From Elusimicrobiota bacterium (GTDB taxonomy: Bacteria; Elusimicrobiota; Elusimicrobia; F11), in assembly GCA_044221725.1 (NCBI GenBank), contig JBGAON010000004.1, positions 221,019 to 285,018 on the forward strand: a stretch of DNA of 64,000 nucleotides, read 5' to 3'. The notes under the pieces are model-generated. The model made no database searches. It was given only the letters and a program-made list of their open reading frames with translations, and had not been told where the DNA came from. Of this stretch, positions 1,767 to 42,818 are shown in pieces. Within the stretch, counting starts at the first letter, position 1; the number at the start of each line of letters is the position of its first letter. The position numbers were made by a program, and so were the translations under genes.

Positions 1767-1774
1767 AATGTGGC

Positions 1775-3152: not shown

Positions 3153-3189
3153 AATTGGCACGTTGTTACTCTACTTGTGAGGTCGCCTA

Positions 3190-5681: not shown

Positions 5682-5690
5682 GGAGGAGCA

Positions 5691-6795: not shown

Positions 6796-6803
6796 TTATT
6801 TTT

Positions 6804-7571: not shown

Positions 7572-7642
7572 ACACCTTTAATACGAACGAGCGCGAGGGA
7601 ATGACGGAGAGAGATTGCTTGGATGAGAGGGATGGCCCCGAT

Positions 7643-16875: not shown

Positions 16876-18936
16876 TCAGGCAACTTTTTCCTTGTATTCG
16901 GAATCGTCCCACACAATCCGAATATCCAATGGTTCTTTGTGCGAGACGCGCAGCGCTCCCCACGCGAGCGCCAGGTGCTCCATTTGGATGTCGGGGGAAA
17001 ACTTGCCCGATTTTCCCACGATAATTTCTTTGGCCCCGATGCTGTGCGCCACTTGCGCCATCGCGTAATAAGGATCGTTTGAAGGAACCATGAGCGGAAT
17101 CACCGGATGCCCCGCTTTTTCGGCCAGCGCGATGATCTGCGTGAAAAGGACTTCTTCTTCGCTGTTGGGTTTCGATACGTCGCCATCCAACTGCGCGTTC
17201 TGAAGAATTTTCGTCGTCATAACAACGACGTCGGTTTCATGATGATTGACCTGTTTGAGCGCCGCTCGCAAATGCGCAAGATTGCGCGGATCGCGCACGG
17301 CCACGACAATGCGATTTGGTTTTGAAACTCCGCACACGTGTGGCGTCAGCGTGTCCACCTGCGTCAAATTCACCGGATCAATGTGCCCGTGTTCGGTCAA
17401 GCCGTCAGCGTGTGCCGGCGCCGCGTGTTTCATTTTGTGTTTGTTGATTTTTTCGGAGATCGTAAACACAATGAAAAATGCGAGCGTGAAAATGGCGCCG
17501 GCGATGGTGGCCACACGTTTTGTGAACAAGTTAACGATCGCCGTCGAAAAAAGGACACCGAAGATGAGAAACAGCCCCACCGGAATTTCGTGTTTGCCGA
17601 TGCGAATGTTGAACGGAACTTTGTATTCGCGCGGCGAACGGTCGTAATAGCGCAGCACGATGATCGCCATCGATTTGAACACAAAACTCCAAATGACGCC
17701 GAACGCGTAGGCTTCGCCGAGCATGTACACATCGCCACGGCACAACAGAAGCGTAACGATCTGCAAGAACACCGTGAGATTGATCAGCCGATACGATGTG
17801 CCATATTTTGGATGCGGCGCTCGGAGAAAATCGGGCAGCACCCCGTCTTCCCCAACACGCGCAAGAACACCGTTCGAACCCACAATCGCCGTGTTAACGG
17901 CGCCCGCCAAAATGAGAAACCCGACGAGCACCACGAACGCTTGAAACAACAACCGAAGGCTCAGTGGGCCCACCATATACATCGTGAGTCCACTGATGAG
18001 ATTGTCCGAGTAATGCGCGAGCCGAACGTTGTCCGGAATAATCATGATCGCGAAGAAACTCACGATGGAAGTCAATAACATGCTGTACAAGAAAATAATG
18101 AAGCCCGTGCGCTTCAAGTTTTTGAGTTTCGGCGCTTCCAGCTCCCGGTAGACCTGCGCCAACGATTCTTCGCCGCTCATGGCGAGCAGCGTGTGGCCGA
18201 ACGCCATGAGAATCCCAGTCATGCCGAGCGGCTTGATGCTCGCGTTGTATTTCCAAAGCCATCCCCACGCCTCGGTCGAGAACACCGGCGTGATGGGCGG
18301 TAGGTGAAAACCGCGAACAGCGAGCGTAAGGGCGCCCCATGCAATCATGATCACGGCCATGATCGTTGTGGCGATCATTATTTTTAATGCTTTGCTGCTC
18401 GACTCCGGAACGCCCTTGATATTTTCCCACCAGAAATAAATCGTCACGCCGAGCGCGAACAACATCGCAAAAATATTTTGATTCAAATGCCACGGCACGT
18501 GCGCTATGGGAAGCAGTGTGTTGATGAGGCCAACCATATATTGTCCGGCCGAAACCGCGCTGATCGGACCCGTCAAAACATAATCAAACATGAGCGCCGA
18601 CACCGAAAGTTTCGCCGTCACGCCACCCAGGCGGTTTCCAAAAATCGCCATTTCCGCTTGTTTGACGACGCGGTAAACACCGCCGCGCACGAAAAGCCCG
18701 CACGACTCCATGTAAAGCGAGCGAACCGCGTACGAGAAAAGCATGACACCCAGAATAAACCACGGCGCCGCTTTTCCGATCGCTTGTTCGGCAATGCCAC
18801 CGATATAGTAAGCGGTCGACGCGAGATCGCACAACACGATCGCCGATGCGCGCCAAAAACTAATAAAGCTCAGCATCGCGGTCGTGACCACAATGACGTT
18901 TTGTGCGGATCGTTTGGTGGGGGCGGTTGCGGTCAT
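16876..18936 (-). CDS. APC-family permease fused to a C-terminal universal stress protein (Usp) domain
   Basis: 686 aa with about 12 TM helices. The C-terminal roughly 150 aa are Usp-like (RIVVAVRDPRNLAHL..IIVGKSGK). The start overlaps the EIIA stop (ATGA). Confidence 0.9.
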   Translation of the reverse strand: MTATAPTKRSAQNVIVVTTAMLSFISFWRASAIVLCDLASTAYYIGGIAEQAIGKAAPWFILGVMLFSYAVRSLYMESCGLFVRGGVYRVVKQAEMAIFGNRLGGVTAKLSVSALMFDYVLTGPISAVSAGQYMVGLINTLLPIAHVPWHLNQNIFAMLFALGVTIYFWWENIKGVPESSSKALKIMIATTIMAVIMIAWGALTLAVRGFHLPPITPVFSTEAWGWLWKYNASIKPLGMTGILMAFGHTLLAMSGEESLAQVYRELEAPKLKNLKRTGFIIFLYSMLLTSIVSFFAIMIIPDNVRLAHYSDNLISGLTMYMVGPLSLRLLFQAFVVLVGFLILAGAVNTAIVGSNGVLARVGEDGVLPDFLRAPHPKYGTSYRLINLTVFLQIVTLLLCRGDVYMLGEAYAFGVIWSFVFKSMAIIVLRYYDRSPREYKVPFNIRIGKHEIPVGLFLIFGVLFSTAIVNLFTKRVATIAGAIFTLAFFIVFTISEKINKHKMKHAAPAHADGLTEHGHIDPVNLTQVDTLTPHVCGVSKPNRIVVAVRDPRNLAHLRAALKQVNHHETDVVVMTTKILQNAQLDGDVSKPNSEEEVLFTQIIALAEKAGHPVIPLMVPSNDPYYAMAQVAHSIGAKEIIVGKSGKFSPDIQMEHLALAWGALRVSHKEPLDIRIVWDDSEYKEKVA

Positions 18937-23368: not shown

Positions 23369-23392
23369 AACCTTCGATAGAAGTTCGCATAG

Positions 23393-24413
23393 TAAGTGCA
23401 ACAGTAAGTAGTTGAGGAGTTGGTTATCCCTTTAAACTGAGGGATACCATGAAATACAAGCACTTAACCGACGGCGAACGAGAAACGTTGTCGTATATGA
23501 GAGCTTGTGGCAAATCGATACGAGAGGCAGCGTTCTATTTGAATCGAGCGCCCAGTACGATTGCCAGAGAAATACGGCGCAATAAGAGTCGAGCACGTTA
23601 TCGGTCCCATCTGGCCCATCGGGCTGCTATAGATCGACGCCATCAGACGCTCCGACGTCAACATCGGTTTAAAGCTGATCCTCAGCTGAGAGATCGTGTT
23701 ATCGAATGGCTTAAGGCAGGATGGTCCCCTGAGATTATCGCAGGCCGACTGAAGCGTGAAGCCCATGGCAAGTCCGTAATACATCATGAGACCATCTATC
23801 GTTGGATTTATCGATACGATCGATCTCTCATCAAGTGTCTCGTCCGATCACATCCTCGTCGGTATCGTCGTCATCAACGGCGCTGGCCGAATCGAATTAT
23901 CCCTCGACGGATTTCAATTCTCCAGCGCCCCGATTTCATTAACCAGCGCAAACAACCAGGGCATTGGGAATCTGACTTGGTGTGGGGATCTGGACGCGCT
24001 GCTCTGCAAGTGCTTGTCGAACGAAAAACCCGTTTCGTCTTTATTCGCAGAACCCGCAATAAATCCGCTCAAGCCAATTACGATGCGCTCTCTGAAGCAT
24101 TGGAACAAATCCCAACTTCTTTACGGCGCACCATCACGTATGATAATGGAAGCGAGAACACACTGCATTGTGAACTCAATGACCGTTTCCAACTGCAATC
24201 GTTCTTCTGTCAGCCGTATCACGCCTGGGAAAAGGGAACCGTAGAAAACACCAACGGTCTGATCCGTCGATACTTCCCCAAACGCACCAACTTCGATACC
24301 ATCTCAGTTCACCAAATCGAAGACGTTCAACGTCGCCTTAACAACAGACCTAGAAAATGTCTTCGCTTTCAAACAGCCGGGGAAGCCTATTCTTCCACCT
24401 TCCGTTGCACTTA
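23393..24413 (+). mobile_element. IS30-family insertion sequence, about 1.0 kb
   Basis: Terminal inverted repeats TAAGTGCAAC (23393-23402) and GTTGCACTTA (24404-24413). They match 10/10, or about 17/23 when extended by hand. They enclose a single DDE transposase. No target-site duplication was recognised. Confidence 0.8.
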
Positions 24414-24414
24414 A
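23449..24414 (+). CDS. IS30-family transposase
   Basis: 321 aa. N-terminal HTH (LTDGERETLSYM..GKSIREAA..STIAREIRRN). DDE region HWESDLV, YDNGSEN, WEKGTVENTNGLIRRYFPK. Confidence 0.95.
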   Translation: MKYKHLTDGERETLSYMRACGKSIREAAFYLNRAPSTIAREIRRNKSRARYRSHLAHRAAIDRRHQTLRRQHRFKADPQLRDRVIEWLKAGWSPEIIAGRLKREAHGKSVIHHETIYRWIYRYDRSLIKCLVRSHPRRYRRHQRRWPNRIIPRRISILQRPDFINQRKQPGHWESDLVWGSGRAALQVLVERKTRFVFIRRTRNKSAQANYDALSEALEQIPTSLRRTITYDNGSENTLHCELNDRFQLQSFFCQPYHAWEKGTVENTNGLIRRYFPKRTNFDTISVHQIEDVQRRLNNRPRKCLRFQTAGEAYSSTFRCT

Positions 24415-24496
24415 AACGCGAATTCAGCCGAAAACCGTTACAAGTCGTTCACGACTCCTTAAAAGATCCTTAATATATTTTAGTTGTAATGAGCGC

Positions 24497-27400
24497 ATGC
24501 GAAGGTTCTTCCCTTTCCGTCGATCTTTTACGTTTTTTTTGGCCATGGTTATGTTCGCCACAAATGTTGTTTGGGCCCACCGCTTGCCTCTGGAAGCCGT
24601 CAATTCGCGCATAACGGTGCCAAACGAAATGGGTATCGTTCGCAATGTTTTCCCAGCGCTCCGTGCCAAACCCGCCAAAGGGATTGTTGTCCATATCCAA
24701 GATATTCACCGTCAAGCCGAAGCACAAGCAAACATCAGTCGCGCGCTCCAATATTTGTTCACGCATTCCAATGTTGGTTTCGTTGGAATCGAAGGCGCTT
24801 TTTCGGAGGTAGAGACGAAGCCATTCCGGAAACATTCGAACCAGCACGATCGGGCCATTGTCGCCGATTCTCTTTTGACCGATCAGAAAATCGCGGGCCC
24901 GTTGCATGCGGCGTTCGTCGGTTCGCCCGATATCCCGTTTATTGGCATTGATAACAGTGCGCTGTACGAAAGGAATCGGCGCGCGTTTCTCATCGCGTCA
25001 CGGCATAAATGCGTTTTGCAAGCCGAGGTTCGCGCGCAGCAAGCAAAGCTCGAGATTCAAAAGCGTCTGACGTTTAACCGGAAGATGCGGGAATTCGATG
25101 CAGCGGTTTCAACATACGACAACGGCCACATGTCGGCGGCGCAGTTCGTTCGCGTGCTCCAGCGAGCGCGCGCGCCGCTCACACCGTTGTTAAATAATTT
25201 TCTCAAAGGAGTATATCTCGAAACCGTTTTGCCGTTGGACGGCGTCACGAAAGATCGCGCCATGGCACTGGCCTATATCAATTACCGCCGCTCCGCGCAG
25301 GGCATCGACATTCGCCAACTTATGTCCGACATCGAATCCGCCAAAAAATCCACCTACGCCGCGTTGTGCAAATCTCAGCGCGAGCACAAAATGCTGGCGG
25401 TCCATCGGCGACTCTATTTGTTGAGGAAACTGGTTGACTTTTCGTTATCACGGGAAGAGTGGAAGGAATGGCAAAAGGTGCAGCGCACTTCGTGCGGTCT
25501 CCTACGAAAGCGTTCCGAAGCCAATCTGAGTTCTTTTGAGGATTTTTACCGGCAGGCCGAATCCCGGGACAATGCCATGGCGGAAAAATTTCTGGAAGAG
25601 ATACAGCGTACGAAGCACGCGGTACGCGGTACCTTTGTCTTAGTGACAGGAGGTTTCCATGCCGATGGCATTGACGCGGTCTTGCGCGACGCGGGTTACG
25701 AAGTCGTTGCATTCGTGCCGCGTGTTTCCAAACCAGATATAAGCGCGTCGTACTTGAACGCATTTCTCCGCGAGCAAACGCCGCTTGAAAAGCTCTTCCA
25801 CGGTGAAAGGTTGTTCCTTGCTGAACGGGTCGCCACAACCGAACAGAATGTTGAAGCGGGAATGTTGCTCATGGCGCAAGCTGTTTTCTCGCGTCGGTTG
25901 TCCTTTGTGCAGGCGTCGCAGCTTTTTGAACGAATCATGCGTTCGTTCCGGCAACCTATTGAAGTAAAGCTCCGCGTTCTTCATTCCGATTCAACGGCGA
26001 TCGCCGGACAAATCGAGCGAACCGGCTGGTTGTCCGCTCGTTTTCGAATTTCGCGAGATGAAAATATGCTTCACCTGGATTGGGTGAAACGCTCTGCGGT
26101 TGTTGGCGTTGTGACGCTTTTCGCTTTTGCTGTTGGGCGTCGACTGGTATTAACGATCGATGGCGCCACGCTCGCACAAATTTCCTGCGTCGTGCTGCTG
26201 GCGGCCGCCGTCCTTGTCCTGACCATAATGGTGGTGTGGTTTCCACCGCGCGGACCGCAAATGGCATTGGCCGGAGCGAGTAAGCTATTGCCAGTACGAA
26301 TTTCCGATTTGGTTGGAAAGACCAGTGAAGAGCTGGCAACAACGTGGGCGTCTGTTTTTGGTGAAAGTGACAAACAAGACACATCACGATCGCGAGAAAC
26401 ATCGACCCAGTCTGCGTGGCACGACATTCAAATCGATAACGCCGCAATCCAACAACATCTGAAGCGGTACCGTGCAATTGTCACGACGTTGGAAAATTAT
26501 CTTAAGCAACATACCGCAAAAAAAATGCCGGATTTGGAGCAAGCCTTAAAAGACGCTGGCGTTAATGAACACTATCCGGATTTTCATCTCAGCGAATGGA
26601 CGGCCGCGCTGCCGACGCTCGATGTTGATCGAATTCTCGCAAACGTCTTTGACGATCTTGAAGAGCAAATCTGCTATCCACGCGGGTTTTCGGTGGATGG
26701 GCCAACGAACATGTTTCGGCTGTCGCGTTGGAAAGAGATTGTCACGCCGCTCGGACGTAAGATTCGCCTTTATGAAGTCGACTTGGGTTCGTTGCAAATT
26801 GGCTCGACGCTCACGAACCGATACCGCGCGCATTCGATTATCGCGGTTTCCGGTCTGCGCAACGAGTTCTTAAGAAAAATGCGTACGAATCGATCGCCTT
26901 ACATTGACACGTTAAAGAACACAAGTGGGTTCGAGGACTATGACCCGGATGCTGTTATCAACGATGCGTACGGAAACAGTTCCGATATGGAGGCCATTTT
27001 GCAAATGCATCCTTATCTGCGGACTGGCAACTGGCGTGGAGCGGTGCTAAAAGATTCCGGCGTCTTGAAAAGCGCGGCGATCGGAGACCCGTCGTTATGG
27101 ACGGTCGCGGCCCGCGTGCTGTTCCATGTCTTCTCGCAACCGCGCAAATTCAATCTGGCGCTCCTGCTCGATGGCTTGAATAACATGCGGTCCATTCTGC
27201 CGCGCGATTATCTTTTCGCCGAGCCGTTGTTGAGAATTATGTGGCCGGACTGGGATGGAAAAGGCAATGCGATTGATGTGTTGGAAGAGCACTTTCGTCG
27301 AAATCCGCCCGCGTTCGCGATGGTCGTTAAAGAGGCGATTCTGGATTACTACAGACAAGAACTTCCGTCTGAAGAAGAGCTGGCCAGATTGGTTACCACC

Positions 27401-30400
27401 ACCGAGCGCGTGTATTTTCCTCGACTTCAACGTGCTTATGAGCAGATGGTCCTGATGGCGTCCCACCCGAAACCGGACCCCGCGCGGCAATTGGCTTCCG
27501 AGAATGAATTCCTGCCAGCGTTGCTGGATTCGTTGCGAATGGTGGCCGCGAATAACACCATCCAGCCATTGGAAAATCTTTTGCCGATGGACGAGACTCT
27601 GATGTCTCCGTGGGACAAGGTGCAGTGGCAACGAACCCTCACTTTGCTCCGACGAGCGATTAATTGGTGGAGCGGCCGAGAGGCGGATGGCTATCAGGCC
27701 ATCTATTCGTTTCGTGTGTTGCTGGCCACGATCAACGAATTGTGGTTAATCCCGCGACGCGAGTTGCTTGTCGGAATCGACACAAACGGTTCTATTGATA
27801 TCCCCAACGAGCGGTTTGCCGTCGGTGCTATCGTTGGTGATGAGTTGCCGAGCACAACGGTCGACAATTTTTCGTTACGCACGTTTCTTGTCGATTTGCC
27901 CGACGCGCTTGCGAATACTTTATCGTACGGCGTATTCGTGGTGGATCTGCGGCCGGCTCCGTCGTACGTGGTCGCTGATCGGAAGTCCGCTGCAAAATTT
28001 ATTCGTGATTTTCAGTCCGATCCCGAAGTGATTGCCATTGCTACTCGGTGGGCGACGGAACGTGGTCTCGTGGTGGACAATGCGGCAACAGTTTATCTGG
28101 TTGCGCTTCAGCAATTCTATTTCCTGAACTATTTGTTTGTGTGGTGGCTTCAGCAGGCACACAATCGATATCTCCATCACTGGGCCGTGTTGCCCGCCGC
28201 AGCGCTGTGCGCTATTCCGTCGAATATCGTTTTGGCGTTGCCAACCCTCTGGGCGTTGGAGAAAAACCGTGCATTCGACCAAGTGCGCGGATACACAAGC
28301 CCAGAATTTATCCTGGGTTTGGAAAGGATTTATGCGGCGTTTGCCGACGCGTTCGGAATAAAGGTGGATATTCGACGAGATGGTCCGGCAGAAGTGACCC
28401 GGGCTTTGGAAGCAAGCAAAGAAAACCCGTTGCGAAGGATGACGCAGGCCGCCGCGCTGAAATTAGCCGAAATCGGTCACCTACCAAAAATAGGATTTTC
28501 TGCCTGGCCTGCCGTGGTGGCGGCATTCGCCCCCCTATCGCCAACAATAGTTAAGGTCCATTTGCAGATTGTGAATGAGCGGGATATTCCGGCGCCCACA
28601 CCGCCGACCCGAATTTACGCGATGGCGGCGGCGTCTCGTTCCGCTCCGGAGCTGGAGACAGTGTCGCGCTCGCAGGTCCATTCGCAGGGGGTCACCATGC
28701 GTATCGTTGATGAGCTAAGCTTTCTTCTGAACGATATTGCGACCGTCGGTGATGTCGACGTCGACATCGCAAAAAAAGAGGATAAGGCATCCGAAAAAAA
28801 TCAGGTTGCCTATATCACGGACGAACACGGAAGCGACAGGCTCGTGATCAAAGTGGGCACTGCGTTCGCAAGCAAAAACGACGACGAGACCGTGTTGGCG
28901 GTTCTTACCCGGGTTCGAACACAAATATCAAACGCGCTCCAATCCCCCTATCAGCAATTGCCCGTTTTGCTGCACGGTGCCATCAATAGGCTTTTCGAAA
29001 ATGCGGACCAACCGTTTGAGGTTTTTGGACCAGCGATAAATACGTTCCCATCCGGAGAAAGAAAAAAACTTCGATGGTTGGATAAAGAGCTGGGAAAAGC
29101 ATGCGCTGTGTGGATGCCGCAAACAAAACAAAATAGATTTTTGTTGGCATCGTTTGCCGCGCGTTGGCTCAATGAAAACCACCTGCTCGATCGTGCGCAT
29201 ATTCTTGTTCCATTGGGCGAAAAGCGTGCAGGCGTTCCGCATTTTCTTTATTTGCCTGTTGCGTACGCCGCCGGCCATTTTGCCGGGCGGCCTGTCTGTT
29301 ACGTTTCTAATCTTGAAACAGGTGTGGCGGTGAATGCCACGCTAAATTCCGCGTTGCATCTGATCATTATTTCGACGGATCAGATTCCAATCGAACGCGA
29401 TGAGTACCATCGCAAAATAAAGGAACTTCCGGTGAAGCCCGATAATCGCCTGGCCGCGGTGAGTTTCATTCTTGCGGGCGTTCTTCTAAAAGATGCAACA
29501 GAAAAAATGTCATCGCTGGAAAAGCGCCGGTTTTATGATGAAGCTTTTTACTCACTGAGCACCGGTCGGCACGGTCTGGCCGGCATCGATGACGCGCAGG
29601 CCAATTTCGCGCTTTCATACTTCTTGATCCCTTCGTTGGGCCAAAACAAAAGTCTGCTCGGTTATTCTCTCGTTATTTGGTCGCTGGTGTTGCTTCATCA
29701 TGTGGTACACAAAGAGGATCAGTCGATTCACACGTTTGCAAAGCAGATCGGCTCTGTCGCGCAAATATTGAATGAAATGCTCGGTGGGGTCGTCGCTGGT
29801 ACGTCCTCGGCGGAATCGATGCTGCACGCGATGGGCCACGTCGATGACGGTGCCCTCGTCGCGCTCGGTGATAAACTGGCTGCGAAATTGGATCCGTTGT
29901 TGCAACGGTACGGAATGCACGCCGACGTCGCTGAAGCGCAAGCTTTGTTCGCGAAAACAACCGTCGTCAAAATTGCCGGTGCCGATAACAAGTCGTTGCC
30001 GGTTGTGGGCTTCGCGCCGATTCTTTCCCCGGCGGCCCCGTCGTTGCACACAACGCAGCACGATTATAAGAAGGATCAGGACCCGGAAAAGAAAAAGAAG
30101 AAACAGCCGGAGAGTAAAATTACCGACCGGGTTTTACCGGAAAAGATATCTGAGGATATTCAGGCACTTGCGATGTTCGCAGGTCCGAACGAATCGGATT
30201 GGCCGGCCGTCGCAATTGATTATGGTCTCGATTATTCGGCTCAAGACCTCCACGAGTTGTACGGACTTTACACAGAAGATCACCGCTTCGAAGGCTTGCG
30301 TTCGGAGTATCCTGGGCACGAAACGATTGCAGCGTTGATTGGTGTGTTTGGATTCAATGCCGAAGAAATTGGAAAACACCGGCACGTTGCAGCAGGAACT

Positions 30401-33400
30401 GCTCATACGTGGTTCACTGATTTTGTGCGAAATATTTACCGCAAAAATCCCAACGTCACAACTTGGACCAATGATGAATGCGGCGGGCACGCAGCGGAGG
30501 CTCAAGAGATTTTCCGCACGGAACCCAATCTCGAATCGCTTCGGTACGAAGCGCCTGGCGCGAGAGATTTGGTGGCGCTGGCAAAGGCATCCGAATTCGA
30601 TGCCGATAAATTCGCCGTGCTGCGAGGAAAAGGAGTATCGACAAAAAAGGCTCATCGATGGCTTCGCGAATACGTGGAGGACCGGTACAACCGAGACGGT
30701 CACAATATATTGCCGTGGGAGACGGATCCTGATTTTGGCAAGCCAGCCATAAAATTCTTTCTTAACGATCCTGAATTGGCGCTCGCGCGTGTTCTGCAAC
30801 CCGGTAATAAAGATATGTTGGCACTGCTGATGCAAACGAAAGCCAACGCGAACGCAATCGCAACGCTCCGTGGAGCCAATGTCAAAGACGTTCGTGGTTG
30901 GATCACAAATTTTTTGATCAACGATCCGGTTTGCCGCGGTCGCGTGAAAGAAATGGCTCTGAAATGCGGCCTCACCGTGGATGAAATAAGCCAAGGTCTC
31001 CTTGATTCAAAATTGGAAGACGTCGCGCTAAAAGTGCGCCAGCAACGCCCCACCGAGGACCAATTGAGGTCGATCATTCAATTGCTGAAAGGGAGTCTCG
31101 TCGCGGTAGCCGATGCGTACGACGTGGAACCGATTGTTGTGTACAAATGGGTTCACGATCCGGCGTTCTCGAATTGCGCGGCGAATTATCGGGATAAATA
31201 TTTCAATGACGACAAAGTTGTCGGCCGTTGGCGAACCTTTTATCGCGGAAATCTCAAGCCGGTGGCTCACGCGTTGGGTTGGTCCGAAGCGCAGATTGAT
31301 CACCTCAACAAAAAGAAAATGGCATCCCTCGCGCTTCGCCGCGCCCAAGGGCTTGGGCTCGACATGTTGCGGATTTTGGATGCTCTGTATAACAACGCTG
31401 AATTGCGTAACGATCGAGCAGAGATTCTTACCTGGCTCGCTGCTCACTGCGACGATTTGTTTAGACGAAACGAATTGGGGCAACCGGAAATTCACCAACA
31501 AGTCGGAAGTATTGTTGCGCCTATCGCGTGGCCAGACGAACGCCACAAAATTGAACGCGCTTACAAAATAACCGCTTTTTCGGTGGCCGGTTACAAAGAC
31601 GCACCGAACTTTTCAATCGCGGCCGACAACGTTGCGTTTGATTTCGTCGTTGAATCCAATGCGTTTCCATTTTTGCATTGGACTCGGCTCATCGTACAAG
31701 GCGGCGTTCCGTCCACAATTGAAGTCGAGGCGTTGCCCGACAACAAATGGCGTATCAGTGGGTCGGTGCTTCTTACGGATCGTAAGCCCGGCGCGGTGAG
31801 CGACCTTCGATTTTGTCTCGTCGACGATTCCATTGACGCATCGGGCCCGGTGTTCGGTCCGATTGCTTCAGCAACAGTACGATACGTCGGCGAGGACAAG
31901 TTGAACCGCACAAGCGCGCGCGTGCAATTGGAGTTCTGGCAAGACCGGCTTGTGCCGCGCACAGAGAACGATCGTTCTCGCGTGATCCGAAAACTAAAAG
32001 AAAACGTCGAGCGTATCCTCATGGCCGATTTTCAAGAAGACCGCACCAGGGGTTTCGCCGAATTGGATCGGCTTATCGAAATTCAACGCGCGGACGTTCG
32101 GCTCTACATGGATGAAAACAACGTGCTTGGCCCCAATCGAGATCATGTGAATTATTTTTATATCGAAGGTAATGAAACAGTGGGACGGCTTAAAGCTGTT
32201 GAGCCGGACACCGCATTGGGTTTCGATCGTAACTTTGAAGCGCTGGTGGACGCGTTGCGCATCCTGCTGGAAATTCGTTCAGAATGGATTGATGTGGAAT
32301 CTTTCAAATTACCGGAATTGAAAGCGGGCATTGAGCATAGTTATCCGCAAAGAGTGGCGGCCGTAAAACTGTTTAAAAAAGTGACCGGCGCGATGGTGGA
32401 CGTCAATGTGGGCGAAGAGCTCGTGGTCGCTGGCCTTGCTGTTGATCGTATGGCGCATGGTTTGTCCGCGATGGACATCCCAGCCGGTGGACACGCGGTC
32501 ATTGTCGTTAACCCGTTGCACAAAAACAAATGGATCAAAGCATTTGAATCTTATGAGCGGCCTACGAGATTTCTCGATTTAACCGGAAAAACAGCCGAGC
32601 GCACAAAGGCGTTAAAGAAATTTGAGAGCGATGCGACAACGCCGCACGTTATTTTCGTTACCCAAGATTATTTGAGATCGCTTGAAAAGGGCCGCACGTC
32701 TCATCCCGCGGTGTCGTTGATTCGCACCAATTTATGCGTCGTTGTTATTACGGGCGCGCAAACGTTGGGCGCATCGGATTCCACTCTCGCCGAGTCTGTC
32801 CGCAAATTTGTGCCGACAGATAAGCGCGTGCCGGTGGTTATTGTCGCCTCTCCAGCGGCGCAGCACGAACTTGGGGCGCTTGACCGCGTGTTGGCTTTTA
32901 TTCGCGAGATGACGGGACTTACAGTCGGGCGTAGAAGCATTAAAGCGGCGTCCGATATTTTGAAGCCGCAGCGCCTGGCGGGCTTGCAAGATTTGCTGAA
33001 CGAACGGCTCGTTTATCTCGATCCGCAAAAAATCTTTAAACCGTTCTCGTCGGAACATCCACACGAAGCGGATCGAATGCCCGAGATTGTCTACGAAACC
33101 AAAACTTACGAGATGCCGTTGTCATTGATGACACGATTGCTTGGTGTGCGCGCCGATCCTGCCAACAAAAAAAGCTACGTGCTCGGAGAAAACAAGCTGC
33201 GCGATGTGCTCGGCGATTTGTCCATTGAAAATTTAAAAATAGGATTGCTTCGTGATGTGATCGAAGAAGAGCGGCAGCACCACGGTCAAGCCAAAGTGGC
33301 GGTCGTTACACGCCGTCAAGATACAGTGGCGCACATCCTCGCCACGTTTGGCGATGCTGCGGTAGGGCTCGCCGAAGAAGCGACAATTCGGAAGGTTCAG

Positions 33401-34696
33401 CGGAGTTATATTGTTGCAGCAAAGAACTCTCAATTGGAAGCAAACATAGATGTATTTAAAACCCGTCCGAATGTTCACGTGATCGCTATGACAATGGACA
33501 CAGGGACAAAACATGGCAATTTGGAAATGCCAAACGCGACCTGTGTGGTGTATTGGGATCCGCCCCGTTCCGCAAACGACCTCGCCGCGGTGTTGCATGG
33601 TGTGTCTCCCGGCGCGCCAACACTGCGTTTTCGTATTGTTAATTTCGCGGCAACTTACAATGAGCAAGCCATCGCAAACCATGGCGTTGGGTTGGGTCCG
33701 CTTGCGTTCCGAACATTCTTCGACGCATACGAGCGCGTGCGGTTTCAACGCGTTCGCAATTTGATGCGCATCGCGGCCGAATTGCTTGATTTGCATTTTA
33801 CCGAAGGCGAAGCGGGCGGTTGGGTGCAAGACAAACTGGATCTTTTGAAAATGCTTGTTGAGCAGTTAAAAGATAGCGGCGCGGTCCCCGACGTGCCCGT
33901 GGAGCAAGTGGATCACAGTGCCGGATTGACGCGGTCTCAGAAGGACGAGGTGTACGCCGAAGTGGCGCGGCTGTTCGAATATCAGCGAACACACACAAAC
34001 AAGCCGAACTTGGTGGAAGTGCGAAATGAGGCAACCAATGCTCTGCGAGAAGTTTTCATGTCCGCGGATAACAAAGAGTTGTCATTCCTCACGCACATTC
34101 AGCAAGAAATTGATGAGGGAAGCGTGGATTTCGATGCGATACCGTTGCTGCGAAACTGGACAGCTTTTTTTAAGAGCTTGGTTGAATCCGGGTTTGACGT
34201 GAACGATCGGCTGGCCGTTTTGCATCACATGCACGAAGAAAAACAGTTGCAATGGGGGCAGCTGATCCCTTCGCAAAAATTCAGCAGTGGGAAGAAATCA
34301 TTCGAATTTGCGTACGATCAGCGGCACGAAATCAGAAAGTTGGGGGGTGCCGATGTTTTGTTGCATTTGTTCAACCAAGCCTATCCGCACCTGAAAGTGA
34401 GTGAATTGAATGCGAAGGCGCTTCAACTGTTGATGCAGCATGCGGATCGGTTCTGGACGTCCGGCGATTGGCCAGAATTCATTAGGCATCTCATTGAAGT
34501 TACGAGCCGTATGTTGGAGAAAAAACGGATTGTCGAACAGTTGAATCAATCAGCGGATGGAAATGGTAACGATCACGCGACCGATAATGGCGCGGAGAAC
34601 GGAAACGGTTTGTCGATCAACGATCTGGTTGCGCCGGCCACAAAAGCGCCAATTATTTCTGTCCATGACGACCAACAAGTCCGTGCCGCCGCATAA
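24497..34696 (+). CDS. giant (3,399 aa) membrane-anchored protein of unknown function with a mosaic domain content
   Basis: Uninterrupted 10.2-kb ORF. It has an N-terminal hydrophobic signal/anchor and a strong TM at about 26180-26242. It also has the TIKI/TraB-like motif pair, the HTH-like module array and the degenerate SNF2 ATPase scaffold described in findings. Confidence 0.85.
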   Translation: MRRFFPFRRSFTFFLAMVMFATNVVWAHRLPLEAVNSRITVPNEMGIVRNVFPALRAKPAKGIVVHIQDIHRQAEAQANISRALQYLFTHSNVGFVGIEGAFSEVETKPFRKHSNQHDRAIVADSLLTDQKIAGPLHAAFVGSPDIPFIGIDNSALYERNRRAFLIASRHKCVLQAEVRAQQAKLEIQKRLTFNRKMREFDAAVSTYDNGHMSAAQFVRVLQRARAPLTPLLNNFLKGVYLETVLPLDGVTKDRAMALAYINYRRSAQGIDIRQLMSDIESAKKSTYAALCKSQREHKMLAVHRRLYLLRKLVDFSLSREEWKEWQKVQRTSCGLLRKRSEANLSSFEDFYRQAESRDNAMAEKFLEEIQRTKHAVRGTFVLVTGGFHADGIDAVLRDAGYEVVAFVPRVSKPDISASYLNAFLREQTPLEKLFHGERLFLAERVATTEQNVEAGMLLMAQAVFSRRLSFVQASQLFERIMRSFRQPIEVKLRVLHSDSTAIAGQIERTGWLSARFRISRDENMLHLDWVKRSAVVGVVTLFAFAVGRRLVLTIDGATLAQISCVVLLAAAVLVLTIMVVWFPPRGPQMALAGASKLLPVRISDLVGKTSEELATTWASVFGESDKQDTSRSRETSTQSAWHDIQIDNAAIQQHLKRYRAIVTTLENYLKQHTAKKMPDLEQALKDAGVNEHYPDFHLSEWTAALPTLDVDRILANVFDDLEEQICYPRGFSVDGPTNMFRLSRWKEIVTPLGRKIRLYEVDLGSLQIGSTLTNRYRAHSIIAVSGLRNEFLRKMRTNRSPYIDTLKNTSGFEDYDPDAVINDAYGNSSDMEAILQMHPYLRTGNWRGAVLKDSGVLKSAAIGDPSLWTVAARVLFHVFSQPRKFNLALLLDGLNNMRSILPRDYLFAEPLLRIMWPDWDGKGNAIDVLEEHFRRNPPAFAMVVKEAILDYYRQELPSEEELARLVTTTERVYFPRLQRAYEQMVLMASHPKPDPARQLASENEFLPALLDSLRMVAANNTIQPLENLLPMDETLMSPWDKVQWQRTLTLLRRAINWWSGREADGYQAIYSFRVLLATINELWLIPRRELLVGIDTNGSIDIPNERFAVGAIVGDELPSTTVDNFSLRTFLVDLPDALANTLSYGVFVVDLRPAPSYVVADRKSAAKFIRDFQSDPEVIAIATRWATERGLVVDNAATVYLVALQQFYFLNYLFVWWLQQAHNRYLHHWAVLPAAALCAIPSNIVLALPTLWALEKNRAFDQVRGYTSPEFILGLERIYAAFADAFGIKVDIRRDGPAEVTRALEASKENPLRRMTQAAALKLAEIGHLPKIGFSAWPAVVAAFAPLSPTIVKVHLQIVNERDIPAPTPPTRIYAMAAASRSAPELETVSRSQVHSQGVTMRIVDELSFLLNDIATVGDVDVDIAKKEDKASEKNQVAYITDEHGSDRLVIKVGTAFASKNDDETVLAVLTRVRTQISNALQSPYQQLPVLLHGAINRLFENADQPFEVFGPAINTFPSGERKKLRWLDKELGKACAVWMPQTKQNRFLLASFAARWLNENHLLDRAHILVPLGEKRAGVPHFLYLPVAYAAGHFAGRPVCYVSNLETGVAVNATLNSALHLIIISTDQIPIERDEYHRKIKELPVKPDNRLAAVSFILAGVLLKDATEKMSSLEKRRFYDEAFYSLSTGRHGLAGIDDAQANFALSYFLIPSLGQNKSLLGYSLVIWSLVLLHHVVHKEDQSIHTFAKQIGSVAQILNEMLGGVVAGTSSAESMLHAMGHVDDGALVALGDKLAAKLDPLLQRYGMHADVAEAQALFAKTTVVKIAGADNKSLPVVGFAPILSPAAPSLHTTQHDYKKDQDPEKKKKKQPESKITDRVLPEKISEDIQALAMFAGPNESDWPAVAIDYGLDYSAQDLHELYGLYTEDHRFEGLRSEYPGHETIAALIGVFGFNAEEIGKHRHVAAGTAHTWFTDFVRNIYRKNPNVTTWTNDECGGHAAEAQEIFRTEPNLESLRYEAPGARDLVALAKASEFDADKFAVLRGKGVSTKKAHRWLREYVEDRYNRDGHNILPWETDPDFGKPAIKFFLNDPELALARVLQPGNKDMLALLMQTKANANAIATLRGANVKDVRGWITNFLINDPVCRGRVKEMALKCGLTVDEISQGLLDSKLEDVALKVRQQRPTEDQLRSIIQLLKGSLVAVADAYDVEPIVVYKWVHDPAFSNCAANYRDKYFNDDKVVGRWRTFYRGNLKPVAHALGWSEAQIDHLNKKKMASLALRRAQGLGLDMLRILDALYNNAELRNDRAEILTWLAAHCDDLFRRNELGQPEIHQQVGSIVAPIAWPDERHKIERAYKITAFSVAGYKDAPNFSIAADNVAFDFVVESNAFPFLHWTRLIVQGGVPSTIEVEALPDNKWRISGSVLLTDRKPGAVSDLRFCLVDDSIDASGPVFGPIASATVRYVGEDKLNRTSARVQLEFWQDRLVPRTENDRSRVIRKLKENVERILMADFQEDRTRGFAELDRLIEIQRADVRLYMDENNVLGPNRDHVNYFYIEGNETVGRLKAVEPDTALGFDRNFEALVDALRILLEIRSEWIDVESFKLPELKAGIEHSYPQRVAAVKLFKKVTGAMVDVNVGEELVVAGLAVDRMAHGLSAMDIPAGGHAVIVVNPLHKNKWIKAFESYERPTRFLDLTGKTAERTKALKKFESDATTPHVIFVTQDYLRSLEKGRTSHPAVSLIRTNLCVVVITGAQTLGASDSTLAESVRKFVPTDKRVPVVIVASPAAQHELGALDRVLAFIREMTGLTVGRRSIKAASDILKPQRLAGLQDLLNERLVYLDPQKIFKPFSSEHPHEADRMPEIVYETKTYEMPLSLMTRLLGVRADPANKKSYVLGENKLRDVLGDLSIENLKIGLLRDVIEEERQHHGQAKVAVVTRRQDTVAHILATFGDAAVGLAEEATIRKVQRSYIVAAKNSQLEANIDVFKTRPNVHVIAMTMDTGTKHGNLEMPNATCVVYWDPPRSANDLAAVLHGVSPGAPTLRFRIVNFAATYNEQAIANHGVGLGPLAFRTFFDAYERVRFQRVRNLMRIAAELLDLHFTEGEAGGWVQDKLDLLKMLVEQLKDSGAVPDVPVEQVDHSAGLTRSQKDEVYAEVARLFEYQRTHTNKPNLVEVRNEATNALREVFMSADNKELSFLTHIQQEIDEGSVDFDAIPLLRNWTAFFKSLVESGFDVNDRLAVLHHMHEEKQLQWGQLIPSQKFSSGKKSFEFAYDQRHEIRKLGGADVLLHLFNQAYPHLKVSELNAKALQLLMQHADRFWTSGDWPEFIRHLIEVTSRMLEKKRIVEQLNQSADGNGNDHATDNGAENGNGLSINDLVAPATKAPIISVHDDQQVRAAA

Positions 34697-39326: not shown

Positions 39327-41312
39327 TTATTCCTCTTCTCCTTGAGACGCGCGGAGTTTGGCGAGCACGGAAAAATCTTCGAGCGTGGTGGTGTCGCCAA
39401 CCGTTTCGCGGCCATGGGCAATGTCACGCAACAGACGCCGCATGATTTTTCCGGACCGTGTTTTCGGCAGCGCGTCCGTGAAATGCACTTCGCTCGGTTT
39501 CGCAATCGATCCGATCGCTTTGGCTACGTGCTGTTTCAATTCGTCTTTCAGCGCATCGGACGGAATTATTTGTCCGTGACCGTTTCCCGCTTTTAGGGTC
39601 ACAAAGGAGACGACGGCTTCGCCGGTCAGATCGTCCGGTCGTCCGACCACGGCGGCTTCGGCGACTTTTGGGTGGCTCACGAGCGCGGATTCAATTTCGG
39701 CTGTGCCGAGGCGGTGGCCGGAAACTTTGATTACGTCGTCCACGCGTCCCATAATCCAGTAGTAACCATCTTTGTCGCGATGCGCACCGTCCCCGGTAAA
39801 ATAGATTTCGGAGACACCTTTCTTGTTCGGTTTTACTTGCGACCAATATTGCTTCTTAAACCGTTCCGGGTCGCCCCAAATTGTTCGCATCATGTGCGGC
39901 CAAGGTTTTCGGATGACGAGGAATCCGCCTTCTTTGGAGGGGTCTCCGTTCTTGTCAACAATGTCCGCAACAATTCCCGGAAGCGGACGTGTCGCAGATC
40001 CGGGCTTCGTCGGTGTCGCGCCGGGCAACGGCGATATGAGAATGCCGCCCGTTTCTGTTTGCCACCACGTGTCGACGATGGGGCAGCGCCCGCCGCCAAT
40101 ATTTTTCTGATACCACATCCACGCTTCCGGATTGATCGGTTCACCAACCGATCCGAGCAAACGCAGCGTGGAAAGATCGTGCTTTTTCGGCCACTCCTCG
40201 CCCCATTTCATAAACGCGCGAATGGCGGTCGGTGCCGTGTAGAGAATGGTCACTTTGTGTCGCTCGATGATGTCCCAAAACCGGTCCGGCGCTGGGTGAT
40301 TCGGCGCGCCTTCGTACATAACGATGGTGGCCCCATGGATGAGCGGGCCATACACCACGTAAGTGTGACCGGTTACCCAGCCAATGTCCGCGGTGCACCA
40401 ATAAATGTCGGTATCTTTGAGGTCGAAGACGTTCTTTGTTGTGAACGCGGCGCCCAGCAGGTACCCACCGGTCGAATGCTGAATTCCTTTCGGTTTGCCG
40501 GTCGATCCCGACGTGTAAAGAATATAAAGCGGATGTTCAGCGTCGAGCGCTTCGGCTTTGCAACGGGTAGACGCTTTCGCCATAAGGTCGTGCCACCAAT
40601 AATCGCGGCCTGCTTGCATGTGAATGATTTGCTTTGTGCGCTGATACACGATGACGGTTTTGATGCCGGCGCAATTCTTCAACGCTTCATCAACGGCGTC
40701 TTTTAGATTGATGGACACGCCGCGGCGAAAACCACCATCGGCCGTAATCACAAATGTCGCTTTCGCATCCGTGATTCGGTCGACGAGCGACTGCGCACTG
40801 AATCCGCCGAAAACAACCGAGTGCGTGGCGCCGATGCGCGCGCACGCGAGCATCGCCATCGCGAGCTCCGGCACCATCGGCATATAAATGATGACACGAT
40901 CGCCTTTTTTAACGCCCTGATCTTTGAGCACATTGGCGAATTTGCACACCTCGCTATGCAATTGGTTGTAGGTAAGAACGCGTTGGTCGCCGGGCTCGCC
41001 TTCCCAAATAATGGCTGCTTTATTTTTGCGCCACGTGCTCAAATGCTGATCGAGACAGTTGTACGATGCATTAATTTTCCCGCCGATGAACCATTTTGCG
41101 AAAGGTGCTTTCCATTCCAACGTTTTTTTCCATGGCTTGAACCAGGCAAGCAGTTCTTTGGCCTTTTCCGCCCAAAATTTTTCGGGATTTTTTATTGACG
41201 CTGAATAGAGGCGTTCGTAATCGCGGAGGCTTTTTACGTGAGCGTTTTTCGAGAAGTCAGGCGATGGGCGAAAAATGCGTTTTTCTTTGAGAATGGATGT
41301 TATCTCGGACAT
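39327..41312 (-). CDS. acs: acetyl-CoA synthetase (AMP-forming)
   Basis: 661 aa. Contains [19 protein letters not shown] and a C-terminal SGKIMRR. Confidence 0.97.
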
Positions 41313-41343
41313 GATCCTCTCCTTAAAAAATTAAGAAAGGATC
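41313..41343 (-). promoter_or_regulatory. hairpin that can sequester the acs Shine-Dalgarno
   Basis: The minus strand reads GATCCTTTCTTAA-TTTT-TTAAGGAGAGGATC followed directly by ATG. The 3' arm contains AAGGAGAGG. Confidence 0.4.
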
Positions 41344-41357
41344 ATAGAAAAATAGAA

Positions 41358-41451
41358 CTGGGCCCATGTTGGTTAGGGGTCAACACGGGCCCAGCTACTT
41401 AAGCTTACTTTAAATTGGGACCTGTGTTAGAAGAGGGGGTAACACAGGCCC
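41358..41451. repeat. two related GGGCCC-type REP-like hairpins
   Basis: CTGGGCCCATGTTG..CAACACGGGCCCAG (41358-41394) and GGGACCTGTGTTA..TAACACAGGCCC (41417-41451), between a gene end and the acs start. Confidence 0.7.
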
Positions 41452-41474
41452 AAAAATTTGTTTCCGCTATCTCA

Positions 41475-41879
41475 TTATCCGGCCCACGCGAGCGCGAGTT
41501 GCAGCACCGATGCGAGTCCAAAAACACCGAGCGCCGTCGCCAGCGCAAACACCGCGGCCAAGCCGACTGTTTCAATTGTTTTTTTGCCACGGCGGCGGGC
41601 ATTAACTTCGCGCGTTGTTGGCAGCATCGGGATGTCCCTCGGGATGAGTGCGCGCACATCGTCGAGCGCAATCTCCTCCAACATGACGTCGTCTTCTGCT
41701 GGCGCCTTTTCCTGTATTTTCAAATCCATCAAGTTGAATCGTTCGCGAATCTTCGCGTCCAGCACCATGAGGTTCATCGCGAGAGCGCTATCCTGACCGA
41801 GCAACTGGTGCTCAATCGCCTCCATTTCTCGCAACAGGTCTTCGTACGTTATCTGCCCTCTTCGTCTCAGTTGAAACAT
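41475..41879 (-). CDS. hypothetical tail-anchored membrane protein
   Basis: 134 aa. Acidic helical N-terminal part and a single C-terminal TM (VGLAAVFALATALGVFGLASVL). Confidence 0.6.
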   Translation of the reverse strand: MFQLRRRGQITYEDLLREMEAIEHQLLGQDSALAMNLMVLDAKIRERFNLMDLKIQEKAPAEDDVMLEEIALDDVRALIPRDIPMLPTTREVNARRRGKKTIETVGLAAVFALATALGVFGLASVLQLALAWAG

Positions 41880-41963
41880 ACCAACCCTCCCTTCGATTGC
41901 TTCGGTGCTGACTCGAGTCTAGCGGGGGGCTGGTGATAAAGCGGTGACAGGAGCGGGAAAAAC

Positions 41964-42515
41964 CTAAGAAATGCGCGGCGGAGTAATGCCTATCTTTTTA
42001 AGCGCTTCTGACGCGGCGTTTTTGACTTCTGGGTTGGAATCCTGTCTAGTCTGGAGCAGTGCCGGGCCCGCATCTTGGGCGGCCAACGGGCCCATTTGGC
42101 CCAGCGCGCGCGCGGCTTCCTCTCTCATTAATGGGTGGGAATCCTTCAGTGCTTCGGTCAGCTCCGGAATGGCCGAGCGCGCGCTCGGGCCAAACCGCTC
42201 CAGAACCGAGGCGGCGCTAACGCGTACAAAGACGTCGGCGTTTTGCAGAGTTTCGCGCAAACCATCAACGGCGGACGGCCCCAAAAGAATTAACGCGTCC
42301 ACAGCACGGTTGGCGGCACGGGGTTCGCTGCCCGCCACATAGACCAAGAGGGGTTTTACGAGAGCCGCTTTGTTGGGCTCCGACAGCCGATTCATTTTCT
42401 TAATTGCGTTGATGCGCACGCGTTCGTCTTCCGAGACGAGCCGCTGATCGAGGGGTTTAAATAGAGAGCATGCGGTAAGCCCACATATAATAAGGAGAGA
42501 AAAGTTGCGCCGCAT
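41964..42515 (-). CDS. HEAT-repeat lipoprotein
   Basis: Lipobox LLIICGLTAC. Repeated units of the type RV.A...L..LGP.A..A.P.L..AL.D... Confidence 0.8.
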   Translation of the reverse strand: MRRNFSLLIICGLTACSLFKPLDQRLVSEDERVRINAIKKMNRLSEPNKAALVKPLLVYVAGSEPRAANRAVDALILLGPSAVDGLRETLQNADVFVRVSAASVLERFGPSARSAIPELTEALKDSHPLMREEAARALGQMGPLAAQDAGPALLQTRQDSNPEVKNAASEALKKIGITPPRIS

Positions 42516-42647
42516 TTGACAGCATTTTAATCATTTTTGTTACAATCCCGCCGAGTTTGGGCTTTGTTCCACCAGGAGTTGGCTGTAGAACCCACCAGAC
42601 AAAACGATTCTTCCCAAGACAAAAAAACAGAATCAAGCAGTTGGGCC

Positions 42648-42818
42648 ATGGCATCCGAAGGGATGCAATTGGCGGTGACGCTGCTTCTTTTCGTTGGCTT
42701 GGGCGTTTGGTTGGATGGAAAGAAAAATTCCTCTCCGTGGTTTACGCTTGCCGGCTCGTTCGTTGGTATTGTTGTTGGGTTGTATGGCTTTCTCCGTAAA
42801 TTCATAAAGAAATCGTGA
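42648..42818 (+). CDS. AtpZ/AtpR-like small membrane protein (putative F0F1 accessory subunit)
   Basis: Internal ATG 42648 gives 56 aa with 2 TM helices (MQLAVTLLLFVGLGVWLD..WFTLAGSFVGIVVGLYGF). First gene of the atp operon. Confidence 0.6.
   Translation: MASEGMQLAVTLLLFVGLGVWLDGKKNSSPWFTLAGSFVGIVVGLYGFLRKFIKKS

Follow-up and report, generated by a model that had tools for sequence, protein, structure and literature searches.

A giant mosaic protein of Elusimicrobiota and the lineage-restricted family defined by its N-terminal head

The window analyzed here is a stretch of 64,000 nucleotides from an Elusimicrobiota bacterium (contig JBGAON010000004.1, assembly GCA_044221725.1), in which a single gene of 10.2 kb codes for a protein of 3,399 amino acids (aa) that we call the giant. 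We show that this protein is one of a family of giant, membrane-associated proteins of mosaic build, which has many paralogs and is restricted to certain lineages, namely Elusimicrobiota and, as more distant relatives, Omnitrophota. What defines the family are the N-terminal ~600 aa, comprising a hydrophobic signal or anchor helix, a domain of about 430 aa of the TIKI/ChaN/erythromycin-esterase type (the head) and usually one to three transmembrane helices; beyond these the proteins are hypervariable. Within this family, the giant is one of five members of a subfamily having in common a C-terminal supermodule of ~1,200-1,400 aa, in which helix-turn-helix (HTH)-like repeats, a beta-rich domain, an SNF2-like fold and a helical tail follow one another. 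A previous reading of the window, made from the sequence alone and henceforth called the sequence-only reading, had taken the giant for an orphan, a view that is no longer tenable: its head recurs in hundreds of giants and its C-terminal 1,200 aa in four others. As to function, we favor with a probability of roughly 0.55 the reading that the giant is a membrane-tethered scaffold, which would combine an active hydrolase head with a binding platform devoid of motor activity.

A head-defined family of giant proteins

A search of 5.8 billion proteins retrieved 79 relatives of the giant, all between 1,900 and 5,800 aa long and listed under the source names Elusimicrobiota, 'bacterium F11' and Omnitrophota. 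By BLAST, the region in common with these relatives is that of aa ~40-460 alone, at 22-35% identity; none of their bodies is similar to the body of the giant and about half are similar to no other body in the sample. Precomputed Pfam annotations of the same bodies include sigma-70, hexokinase, adenylate kinase, PFK, enolase, SecA_DEAD, AAA+, GNAT, HEAT and SNF2 domains, and also HATPase_c, NUDIX, PPDK_N, HAD, starch synthase and PGM, with the SecA DEAD domain (PF07517) occurring in three relatives, P0026, P0030 and P0044 (labels of the P00xx form denote database proteins, L0xx fetched contig loci and L0xxp the proteins translated from such loci). Besides exceeding 1,900 aa in length, the giant has the motifs typical of the family, namely the N-terminal hydrophobic helix followed by hIQDxH, EG, RD and VLVTGGFH. 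A GTDB-wide pattern scan with one genome per species, built on a sub-alignment of 10 heads, confirmed 253 copies of the head; the best 80 of these 253 all lie in metagenome-assembled genomes (MAGs) of Elusimicrobiota, and within these best 80 individual genomes have at least 10 (F1F2.bin.33), 8, 7, 7 and 6 copies, which amounts to no fewer than 5-10 paralogs per genome; the genome of the window is not among them. Scans of metagenome contigs with the whole protein and with P0081 confirmed no locus, and exact-sequence look-ups of P0001, the database entry of the giant, and of P0015 found no record.

The subfamily emerged from two kinds of search: aa 2400-3399, run with HMMER against all of 1.84 billion representatives, found P0083 (4,861 aa) and P0082, and translated searches of fetched loci added L001p and L002p. 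P0083 has the family head and a collinear match to aa 1910-3132 of the giant (23.5% identity over 1,337 columns, E 4e-52). In L001p (at least 3,864 aa), similarity to the giant extends over the head, a conserved island at aa 1071-1156 and aa 2060-3022 (E 1e-34); in L002p (at least 3,336 aa), it extends over the head and aa 1913-3097 (E 1e-15 and 2e-10). The fifth member is encoded on L082, a nanopore contig, by a frameshifted giant gene of which P0082 represents one piece; the possibility that P0082 is a stand-alone C-terminal module was discarded for this reason. Gene calling on this contig splits the fifth member (positions 100-23051) into a row of five or six genes, with switches between frames 1 and 2, so that giant genes of the family are likely to be undercounted in long-read assemblies. 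The same contig carries a second paralog of the family in tandem after the fifth member, with a weak PF04187 head and a PEP-utilizers_C body. A Pfam scan of the subfamily relatives returned no domain above threshold.

Is the gene itself to be trusted? The frame of 3,399 codons, beginning with ATG, is uninterrupted from 24497 to 34696 on the forward strand, as the sequence-only reading had noted, and is about three times longer than any other in the window, the second-longest open reading frame (ORF) measuring 1,092 aa. At the local base composition stops would fall by chance at ~4.4% of codons, giving a probability of ~e^-150 for so many open codons. Every 1.2-kb tile of the gene follows the order GC1 > GC3 > GC2 of GC content at the first, third and second codon positions, and the correlation with the neighboring housekeeping genes in relative synonymous codon usage is r = 0.88 (r = 0.81-0.82 when head, middle and C-terminus are scored separately), as against r = 0.25 between the adjacent IS30 transposase and the rest of the region. 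Given this uniform coding signature and the contrast with IS30, the gene is real and native, not foreign by codon usage. P0001 begins 16 codons downstream of the ATG at 24497, yet we favor this ATG as the start because the relatives have a charged n-region followed by a hydrophobic region of full length.

The idea that the giant is an artefact or decaying sequence, be it an assembly chimera, a frame with hidden frameshifts or a long ORF under no selection, draws on two observations: an IS30 element lies 75 bp upstream, and the short JGI contig L080 (3300045388, Ga0490039_024230; 1,925 bp) is 99% identical over its positions 1-204 to window positions 33833-34036, where it switches abruptly to a gene for a PrsW protease and one for HSP20. 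Besides the open frame and uniform codon statistics, several facts speak to the contrary. The order of head, hairpin, islands, supermodule and tail is identical in five independent assemblies, that of the window and four others, which is a strong argument against a chimera; moreover, the catalytic residues of the head are invariant. Because the window sequence past the breakpoint is homologous to the tails of the relatives, L080 rather than the window is best read as the odd one out, either a chimera or a strain rearrangement. We therefore give the artefact explanation hardly any credence, the least of all those considered here.

Giant genes combining transmembrane regions with cytoplasmic-type domains have been reported in Omnitrophota, and their occurrence in Elusimicrobia is described as common (10.1101/2023.11.21.568195; PMC12057145; 10.64898/2026.06.07.730766). 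The giants so described (10.1101/2023.11.21.568195; 10.64898/2026.06.07.730766) come from the same phyla as the present family or from neighboring ones, and share with it a signal peptide and/or transmembrane helices and long unannotated stretches between cytoplasmic-type Pfam domains; SecA_DEAD, HEAT, HATPase_c, NUDIX, PPDK_N, GNAT, HAD, starch synthase and PGM recur in both. However, the published work focuses on proteins of >10,000-30,000 aa, whereas this family spans 1,900-5,800 aa. N-termini also differ, being C39 or S8 peptidase domains, or no domain, in the published giants and a TIKI/ChaN-like head here, a head that neither 10.1101/2023.11.21.568195 nor 10.64898/2026.06.07.730766 mentions. 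Finally, none of their hallmark Pfam domains is found in the giant: it lacks a match to SecA_DEAD, which in those proteins is divergent and accompanied by numerous transmembrane regions, and it has 3,399 aa and, by hydropathy scan, three to five hydrophobic segments. A literature search on PF04187, DUF399 and Cofac_haem_bdg turned up no work that deals with giant proteins. The head-defined family, the supermodule of the subfamily and the disparity in rates presented below appear to be undescribed in the searchable literature, even if the giant-gene phenomenon itself is published. The earlier statement that no characterized protein has the combination of parts seen in the giant still stands, yet uncharacterized giant mosaic membrane proteins of Omnitrophota and Elusimicrobia were already on record.

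The head and its membrane segments

Upon re-inspection of the sequence, each part of the giant that had been named before was found in its place. The gene and its parts, all on the forward strand, are as follows.

24497..34696 (+), giant gene, 3,399 aa from the upstream ATG (ORF calling, codon statistics)
24527..24577 (+), N-terminal hydrophobic helix FTFFLAMVMFATNVVWA after an Arg-rich n-region, aa 11-27
24614..25906 (+), head, probably of the TIKI/ChaN/erythromycin-esterase superfamily, with a large helical insertion, aa ~40-470 (relatives, invariant columns, PF04187, AlphaFold2 (AF2) model)
25751..25822 (+), linear motif YLxxFxQEKTPLExLFxGEKLFLA, aa 419-442 (alignment of heads)
26096..26278 (+), probable transmembrane hairpin of two helices, aa 534-552 and 562-582, then the juxtamembrane motif PPRGPQMALAGA (hydropathy, relatives)
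26279..30067 (+), middle region with no recognizable domain, aa 595-1857 (library scans, relatives)
30068..30118 (+), lysine-rich linker KKDQDPEKKKKKQPESK, aa 1858-1874 (sequence inspection)
30308..31168 (+), four three-helix HTH-like modules of ~80 aa, aa ~1938-2224 (repeat pattern PGxxD-h-x-AL...RG...W)
31559..31903 (+), beta-rich domain, aa ~2355-2469 (~10 predicted strands, predicted local distance difference test (pLDDT) 50-66)
32342..33640 (+), SNF2-like two-lobe fold without catalytic motifs, aa ~2616-3050 (Foldseek, motif alignment)
34040..34513 (+), helical tail domain with an LLRNW motif, aa 3182-3339 (tail profile of the relatives)
34544..34624 (+), low-complexity tail rich in N, G and D, aa 3350-3376 (sequence inspection)

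Residue conservation and the predicted fold suggest that the head belongs to the TIKI/ChaN superfamily and is probably an active hydrolase. A motif pair like that of TIKI proteins lies at aa 64-80 and 381-392, and the putative catalytic set, D69-x-H71, E99, R357 and H388 (numbering of the full protein), is invariant in all 25 heads that were aligned, the other invariant columns being Q77, I80, G100, G150, F350, G385, G386 and P408. The catalytic set of the superfamily consists of 2His/2Glu plus a basic residue, exemplified by E3900, H3902, E3930, R4001 and H4030 of the TIKI endopeptidase RRSP (PMC6254334); the spacings of 28 residues between H71 and E99 and of 31 between R357 and H388 compare with 28 and 29 in that protein. 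The arrangement found in Tiki, TraB/PrgY, ChaN, erythromycin esterases, RRSP and HopBA1, in which a strand ends in [DE]-x-H, Glu follows 28 residues on, and then come Arg and, ~30 residues after it, G-x-H, thus has its counterpart in the head; the Ere (erythromycin esterase) family and HopBA1 have both been assigned to the superfamily (PMC6254334). The Pfam profile PF04187 (ChaN, Tiki superfamily) matches 14 of the 25 heads at E<0.1, with a best E of 4.7e-7. In the AF2 model of the head (pLDDT 81.7) a parallel beta-sheet, as in the TIKI core, carries D69/H71, E99 and H388 at strand ends, the strands bearing catalytic residues including 36-42, 66-71 and 352-358, and a helical insertion of ~200 aa is predicted. 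Searched with Foldseek against the PDB, this model has erythromycin esterase EreC as its top, though weak, match and HopBA1 at rank 22. The domain of ~500 aa with a TIKI/TraB-like motif pair that had been proposed for this region is largely borne out. Comparison of the head profile with PDB sequences gave noise, with calmodulin-like matches to the helical insertion (E ~0.02) that were dismissed. The motif at aa 419-442 is among the best-conserved stretches of the family, though its pLDDT is <50, and it may be a docking or cleavage site.

Known TIKI superfamily members include peptidases, esterases, a reported lipase and a haem-binding protein, and we know of none that is fused in this way to a body of several thousand residues. 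The lipase activity is reported for a DUF399/ChaN-type membrane protein of Borrelia (PMC8409650).

On which side of the membrane, then, would head and body lie? The hydrophobic segment that had been noticed at the N-terminus is indeed present at aa 11-27 and could be either a signal peptide or a signal anchor; the relatives start likewise with a charged n-region and a hydrophobic stretch of ~17 aa, often followed by FAHA-x-E-x-NFW-x-ERR, a motif that is degenerate in the giant. After the head, the sequence-only reading had seen one strong transmembrane helix. This helix is where it had been located (aa 562-582, nt 26180-26242, hydropathy score 3.0), but it is preceded by a second one, aa 534-547/552 (score 1.95 for aa 534-552), and the pair, joined by a short loop, is conserved in the closest relatives: it recurs in L001p (scores 2.2 and 2.5), L002p and P0083, hence in all four subfamily members examined. 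A PQ(M/S)xxAFAG motif follows the hairpin in the giant, L001p and L002p, whereas P0083 has the pair without the motif; the longer juxtamembrane form PP(R)xPQMxLAFAGAG, at 26243-26278 (aa 583-594), is likewise kept in the giant, L001p and L002p. In a set of 83 family members, the head is followed by no helix in 28, by one in 20, by two in 21 and by three or more in 14.

These counts bear on the topology proposed before, in which an orphan transmembrane protein has its hydrolase-like head outside the cytoplasm, crosses the membrane once, keeps a body of DNA-binding and pseudo-helicase parts inside, and would act as a giant one-component sensor or anchor. Such a head-out, body-in design is in keeping with the signal-like N-terminus, with aa 562-582 being by far the strongest hydrophobic segment, with the 20 of 83 members having exactly one helix after the head and with the cytoplasmic character of the body modules. 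It was founded, however, on one helix, and because two follow the head it is unproven; the second is conserved in the subfamily, the giant is not an orphan, and helix parity varies to the point that 28 of 83 members have no helix at all, so a fixed head-out design is no property of the family. For these reasons we regard this explanation as unlikely, even if it is the strongest of the rivals. Since none or two are the commonest numbers of helices after the head, the data fit a topology in which both head and body face one side of the membrane, and we consider this the more likely arrangement from the distribution of predicted helices. That side would be the cytoplasm because the bodies of the relatives carry ATP-dependent domains of cytoplasmic type (sigma-70, AAA+, kinases, SecA), and the N-terminal helix would then serve as an anchor instead of being cleaved off as a signal. 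The positive-inside rule was tried and allowed no call, as charges are similar on both flanks of all three helices.

The middle region and the C-terminal supermodule

The body as a whole matched nothing above threshold when the complete protein was scanned against Pfam, NCBIfam, PADLOC and PDB sequences. The stretch of about 1,300 aa previously described as unrecognizable remains so in library scans of aa 595-1857, but two collinear islands, aa 1071-1156 and aa 1502-1568, are conserved among the subfamily relatives. Beyond it, the lysine-rich linker already recognized at aa 1858-1874 leads to the four HTH-like modules. As to these, the repeat first perceived in the sequence is real, being present also in P0083, and AF2 renders the modules as three-helix units (pLDDT 64-83 for modules 2 and 3), and their HTH identity is plausible, being hinted at by weak Pfam matches (HTH_23, E 0.062; HTH_Tnp_1_2, E 0.074). 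Self-BLAST of the giant found no internal repeats, the HTH-like repeat being visible solely as a pattern. The ensuing segment, rightly suspected to be beta-rich, has ~10 strands in the AF2 prediction and is conserved in P0083 and P0082.

The next module is the SNF2-like one. The AF2 model of the C-terminal part (aa 1930-3115) has 235 PDB matches in Foldseek at E<=1e-3, and the top 50 are nearly all SNF2 ATPases with E of 1e-9 to 1e-6; the matches include Mot1, SMARCAD1, ISWI, SNF2h, CSB, Chd1, INO80, RapA, ZorD (rank 34) and Rad54. As in RapA, Mot1, ISWI, Rad54 and ZorD, two RecA-like lobes are predicted, with matching order and spacing of the blocks around motifs Ia, II, III, V and VI. Aligned with the intact SNF2 domain of the family member P0048, the giant has NVGEE in place of GLGKT and VITGAQ in place of VVDESQ, and it keeps the pattern of the Ia, III and V blocks. 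NVGEE lies at the Walker A position (aa 2637-2641), ITGAQ at the DExH position (aa 2751-2755) and DLAAVLHGV in the region of motif VI, while P0083 and P0082 have WDAR at Walker A and AGGH or AGAH at DExH. Unlike SNF2 ATPases, all five members of the subfamily, L001p and L002p included, have replaced the GKT of Walker A, the DExH box and the arginines of motif VI. Because of this replacement, and because neither SNF2-rel_dom nor Helicase_C of Pfam matches the giant at E<=1, the SNF2-like module is best interpreted from its sequence as a pseudo-ATPase derivative and not as a working member of the SNF2 family; the previous description of an SNF2-type scaffold with every catalytic motif substituted largely holds. 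The loss of the P-loop lysine and of the Walker B acids in all five members further suggests that the module was non-catalytic already in the ancestor of the subfamily and has been kept as a scaffold.

At the C-terminal end, the tail profile of the relatives matches the helical tail domain of the giant with E 3.4e-8 in a single comparison, and the N/G/D-rich tail reported before lies at aa 3350-3376.

Genomic neighborhood, divergence and possible function

Two features outside the gene are relevant to its history.

23384..24422 (+), IS30-family element with transposase at 23449-24414 and imperfect inverted repeats of 26 nt that are 77% complementary
41475..42515 (-), gene for a HEAT-repeat protein (41964-42515) and gene for a 134-aa tail-anchored protein (41475-41879), which immediately precede the orthologous giant in two related genomes

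The neighbors of the giant are genes for a histidine kinase, the IS30 element, msrB, a YkuD L,D-transpeptidase, an M15 peptidase, serS and acs, and neither secretion nor defense genes were seen in its neighborhood within the window. In two related genomes (L001, positions 1-8700; L081, positions 1-2549 and 17167-17619) the gene order is atp operon, HEAT protein, tail-anchored protein of 131-134 aa, giant and acs. The window differs: here the genes for the HEAT and small proteins and acs lie next to one another on the reverse strand (39327-42515) with no giant in between, and the giant lies 6.8 kb away from this block, inverted and with IS30 at its 5' end. Since genes that adjoin each other here surround the ortholog in two relatives, the gene order points to a relocation of the giant gene in the genome of the window, possibly via IS30. 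The HEAT-repeat and tail-anchored proteins were considered as dedicated partners of the giant and set aside as unproven, both being missing beside the member on L082.

Two further observations concern the rest of the window. A gene for a DnaE2-type error-prone polymerase of 1,092 aa lies beside one for an ImuB-like Y-family protein (7643-12303, reverse strand), having the look of a mutagenesis cassette, and an ORF of 341 aa between the HEAT-repeat gene and the atp operon (42527-43552, reverse strand) has no Pfam match at E<=1e-5.

The same synteny allows rates to be compared. Between the window and L001, which is an Elusimicrobia MAG, the ATP synthase subunits are 94% (atpD), 91% (atpA), 80% (atpB) and, for the other atp subunits, 77%, 77% and 71% identical, the tail-anchored small protein 61% and the HEAT protein 50%. 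The value for atpD would place the window in the phylum of that MAG. The giant retains 28% identity in the head and 22% at the C-terminus, and its middle is undetectable save for the two islands. With 22-28% against 71-94% identity, the giant diverges unusually fast relative to the neighboring atp genes, and among the quantitative findings this disparity stands out most.

Rapid evolution and the presence of many paralogs could be expected of an anti-phage defense component built around an SNF2-like helicase, as are ZorD of Zorya, itself among the Foldseek matches, and DrmD of DISARM. Against such a role, the ATPase motifs that it needs are missing in all five subfamily members, PADLOC models gave no match to the giant at E<=1 (0 families), no defense-type partner genes were seen and no neighbor common to all subfamily loci was found. 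We hold it to be very improbable.

In the reading that we favor, the N-terminal helix and the hairpin would tether the protein to the cytoplasmic membrane in such a way that its head and its body share one face, most probably that of the cytoplasm. As an active hydrolase, either a peptidase or an esterase, the head would work at the membrane and possibly act on the giant itself, while the dead SNF2 module and the HTH-like repeats may form a non-motor binding platform for a nucleic acid or a protein partner. The very fast turnover of the sequence would then speak for a part in some interaction that is under pressure to diversify, and against a housekeeping role.

This interpretation needs to be qualified, as several observations weigh against it. 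The head differs from known TIKI hydrolases in having Asp instead of Glu as first catalytic acid, in the ~200-aa helical insertion between its two halves and in a Pfam score below threshold, since PF04187 gives 17.2-20.3 bits for the giant and the gathering cut-off is 27.7; the structural match to EreC (6xcq) is weak, with E 0.087 and a TM-score of 0.22. The C-terminal model is poor (mean pLDDT 48, from an alignment of three sequences), for which reason the SNF2 assignment rests on local 3Di matches combined with the motif pattern. Aligned by hhalign, the pseudo-ATPases and the intact SNF2 domain of P0048 reach a probability of 12%, and in a comparison of the sequence profile with the PDB there is a weak match to lobe 2 of the Hef helicase alone (E 0.017). 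Regarding topology, the hydropathy scan is crude, and the N-terminus resembles a cleavable Sec signal in its Arg-rich n-region and VWA/AHA ending; were it cleaved, the head and, given the hairpin, also the body would lie outside the cytoplasm. Lastly, fast sequence change could equally reflect weak constraint.

In another explanation, the giant would be an exported or delivered effector array like MARTX or polymorphic toxins, with an N-terminal module serving for export and/or TIKI autoprocessing and a variable body as cargo, in line with the predation hypothesis for Omnitrophota giants. MARTX toxins resemble the giant in several respects: these have 3,500-5,300 aa, conserved ends, a mosaic interior that varies among strains and a TIKI-family domain, and their mechanism includes processing by a built-in protease (PMC6254334). 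TIKI-family domains are endopeptidases inside these giant toxins (PMC6254334), and West-Roberts et al. suggested that N-terminal peptidase domains may cut giant proteins (10.1101/2023.11.21.568195). The signal-like N-terminus, a conserved N-terminal part joined to a variable body, the many paralogs per genome and the extremely fast divergence of orthologs relative to their neighbors are also consistent with it. Nevertheless, the TIKI domain is a cargo module in MARTX, RRSP being an internal effector of its giant toxin, whereas it constitutes the conserved head of the giant and its family. Unlike MARTX, moreover, the giant has no RTX/MARTX repeats or cysteine protease domain (CPD) in the Pfam scan, which likewise revealed no toxin, adhesin, carbohydrate-binding or RTX-type repeat, and no type I secretion genes nearby; more generally, no secretion-system genes lie beside the giant, P0019, P0083 or L001. 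Its body modules are catalytically dead or DNA-binding-like, those of the relatives resemble housekeeping enzymes, and the hairpin argues for retention in the membrane. On balance we find delivery as an effector array rather improbable, a step below the head-out design.

At a similarly low level of confidence, the idea can be extended to the family, whose TIKI-headed giants might be a class, not recognized before, of rapidly diversifying polyproteins or effector arrays, with the head as a membrane-sited protease that processes the body. Cleavage would occur, for example, at the QEKTPLExLFxGEKLFL or PQMxLAFAG motifs, which are conserved and apparently unstructured. It would release or expose variable modules, among them dead SNF2 scaffolds, sigma factors and domains resembling enzymes, for interactions with other cells or with mobile elements, and free-living candidate phyla would thus have a counterpart of the modular delivery known from MARTX.

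Whichever role applies, giant genes in Omnitrophota and Elusimicrobia pose a recognized puzzle without a functional handle, and one conserved head of ~430 aa, probably catalytic, that unites hundreds of otherwise unrelated giants can be expressed and assayed separately. Syntenic orthologs that have drifted to 22-28% identity, or beyond detection, beside ATP synthase genes at 71-94% are a natural experiment by which such fast change can be quantified. The SNF2 module, apparently dead since the ancestor and conserved in five members, would be a pseudo-enzyme kept by selection and may reveal its binding partner. If the head were indeed a processing protease, the problem of giant proteins would become one of polyproteins.

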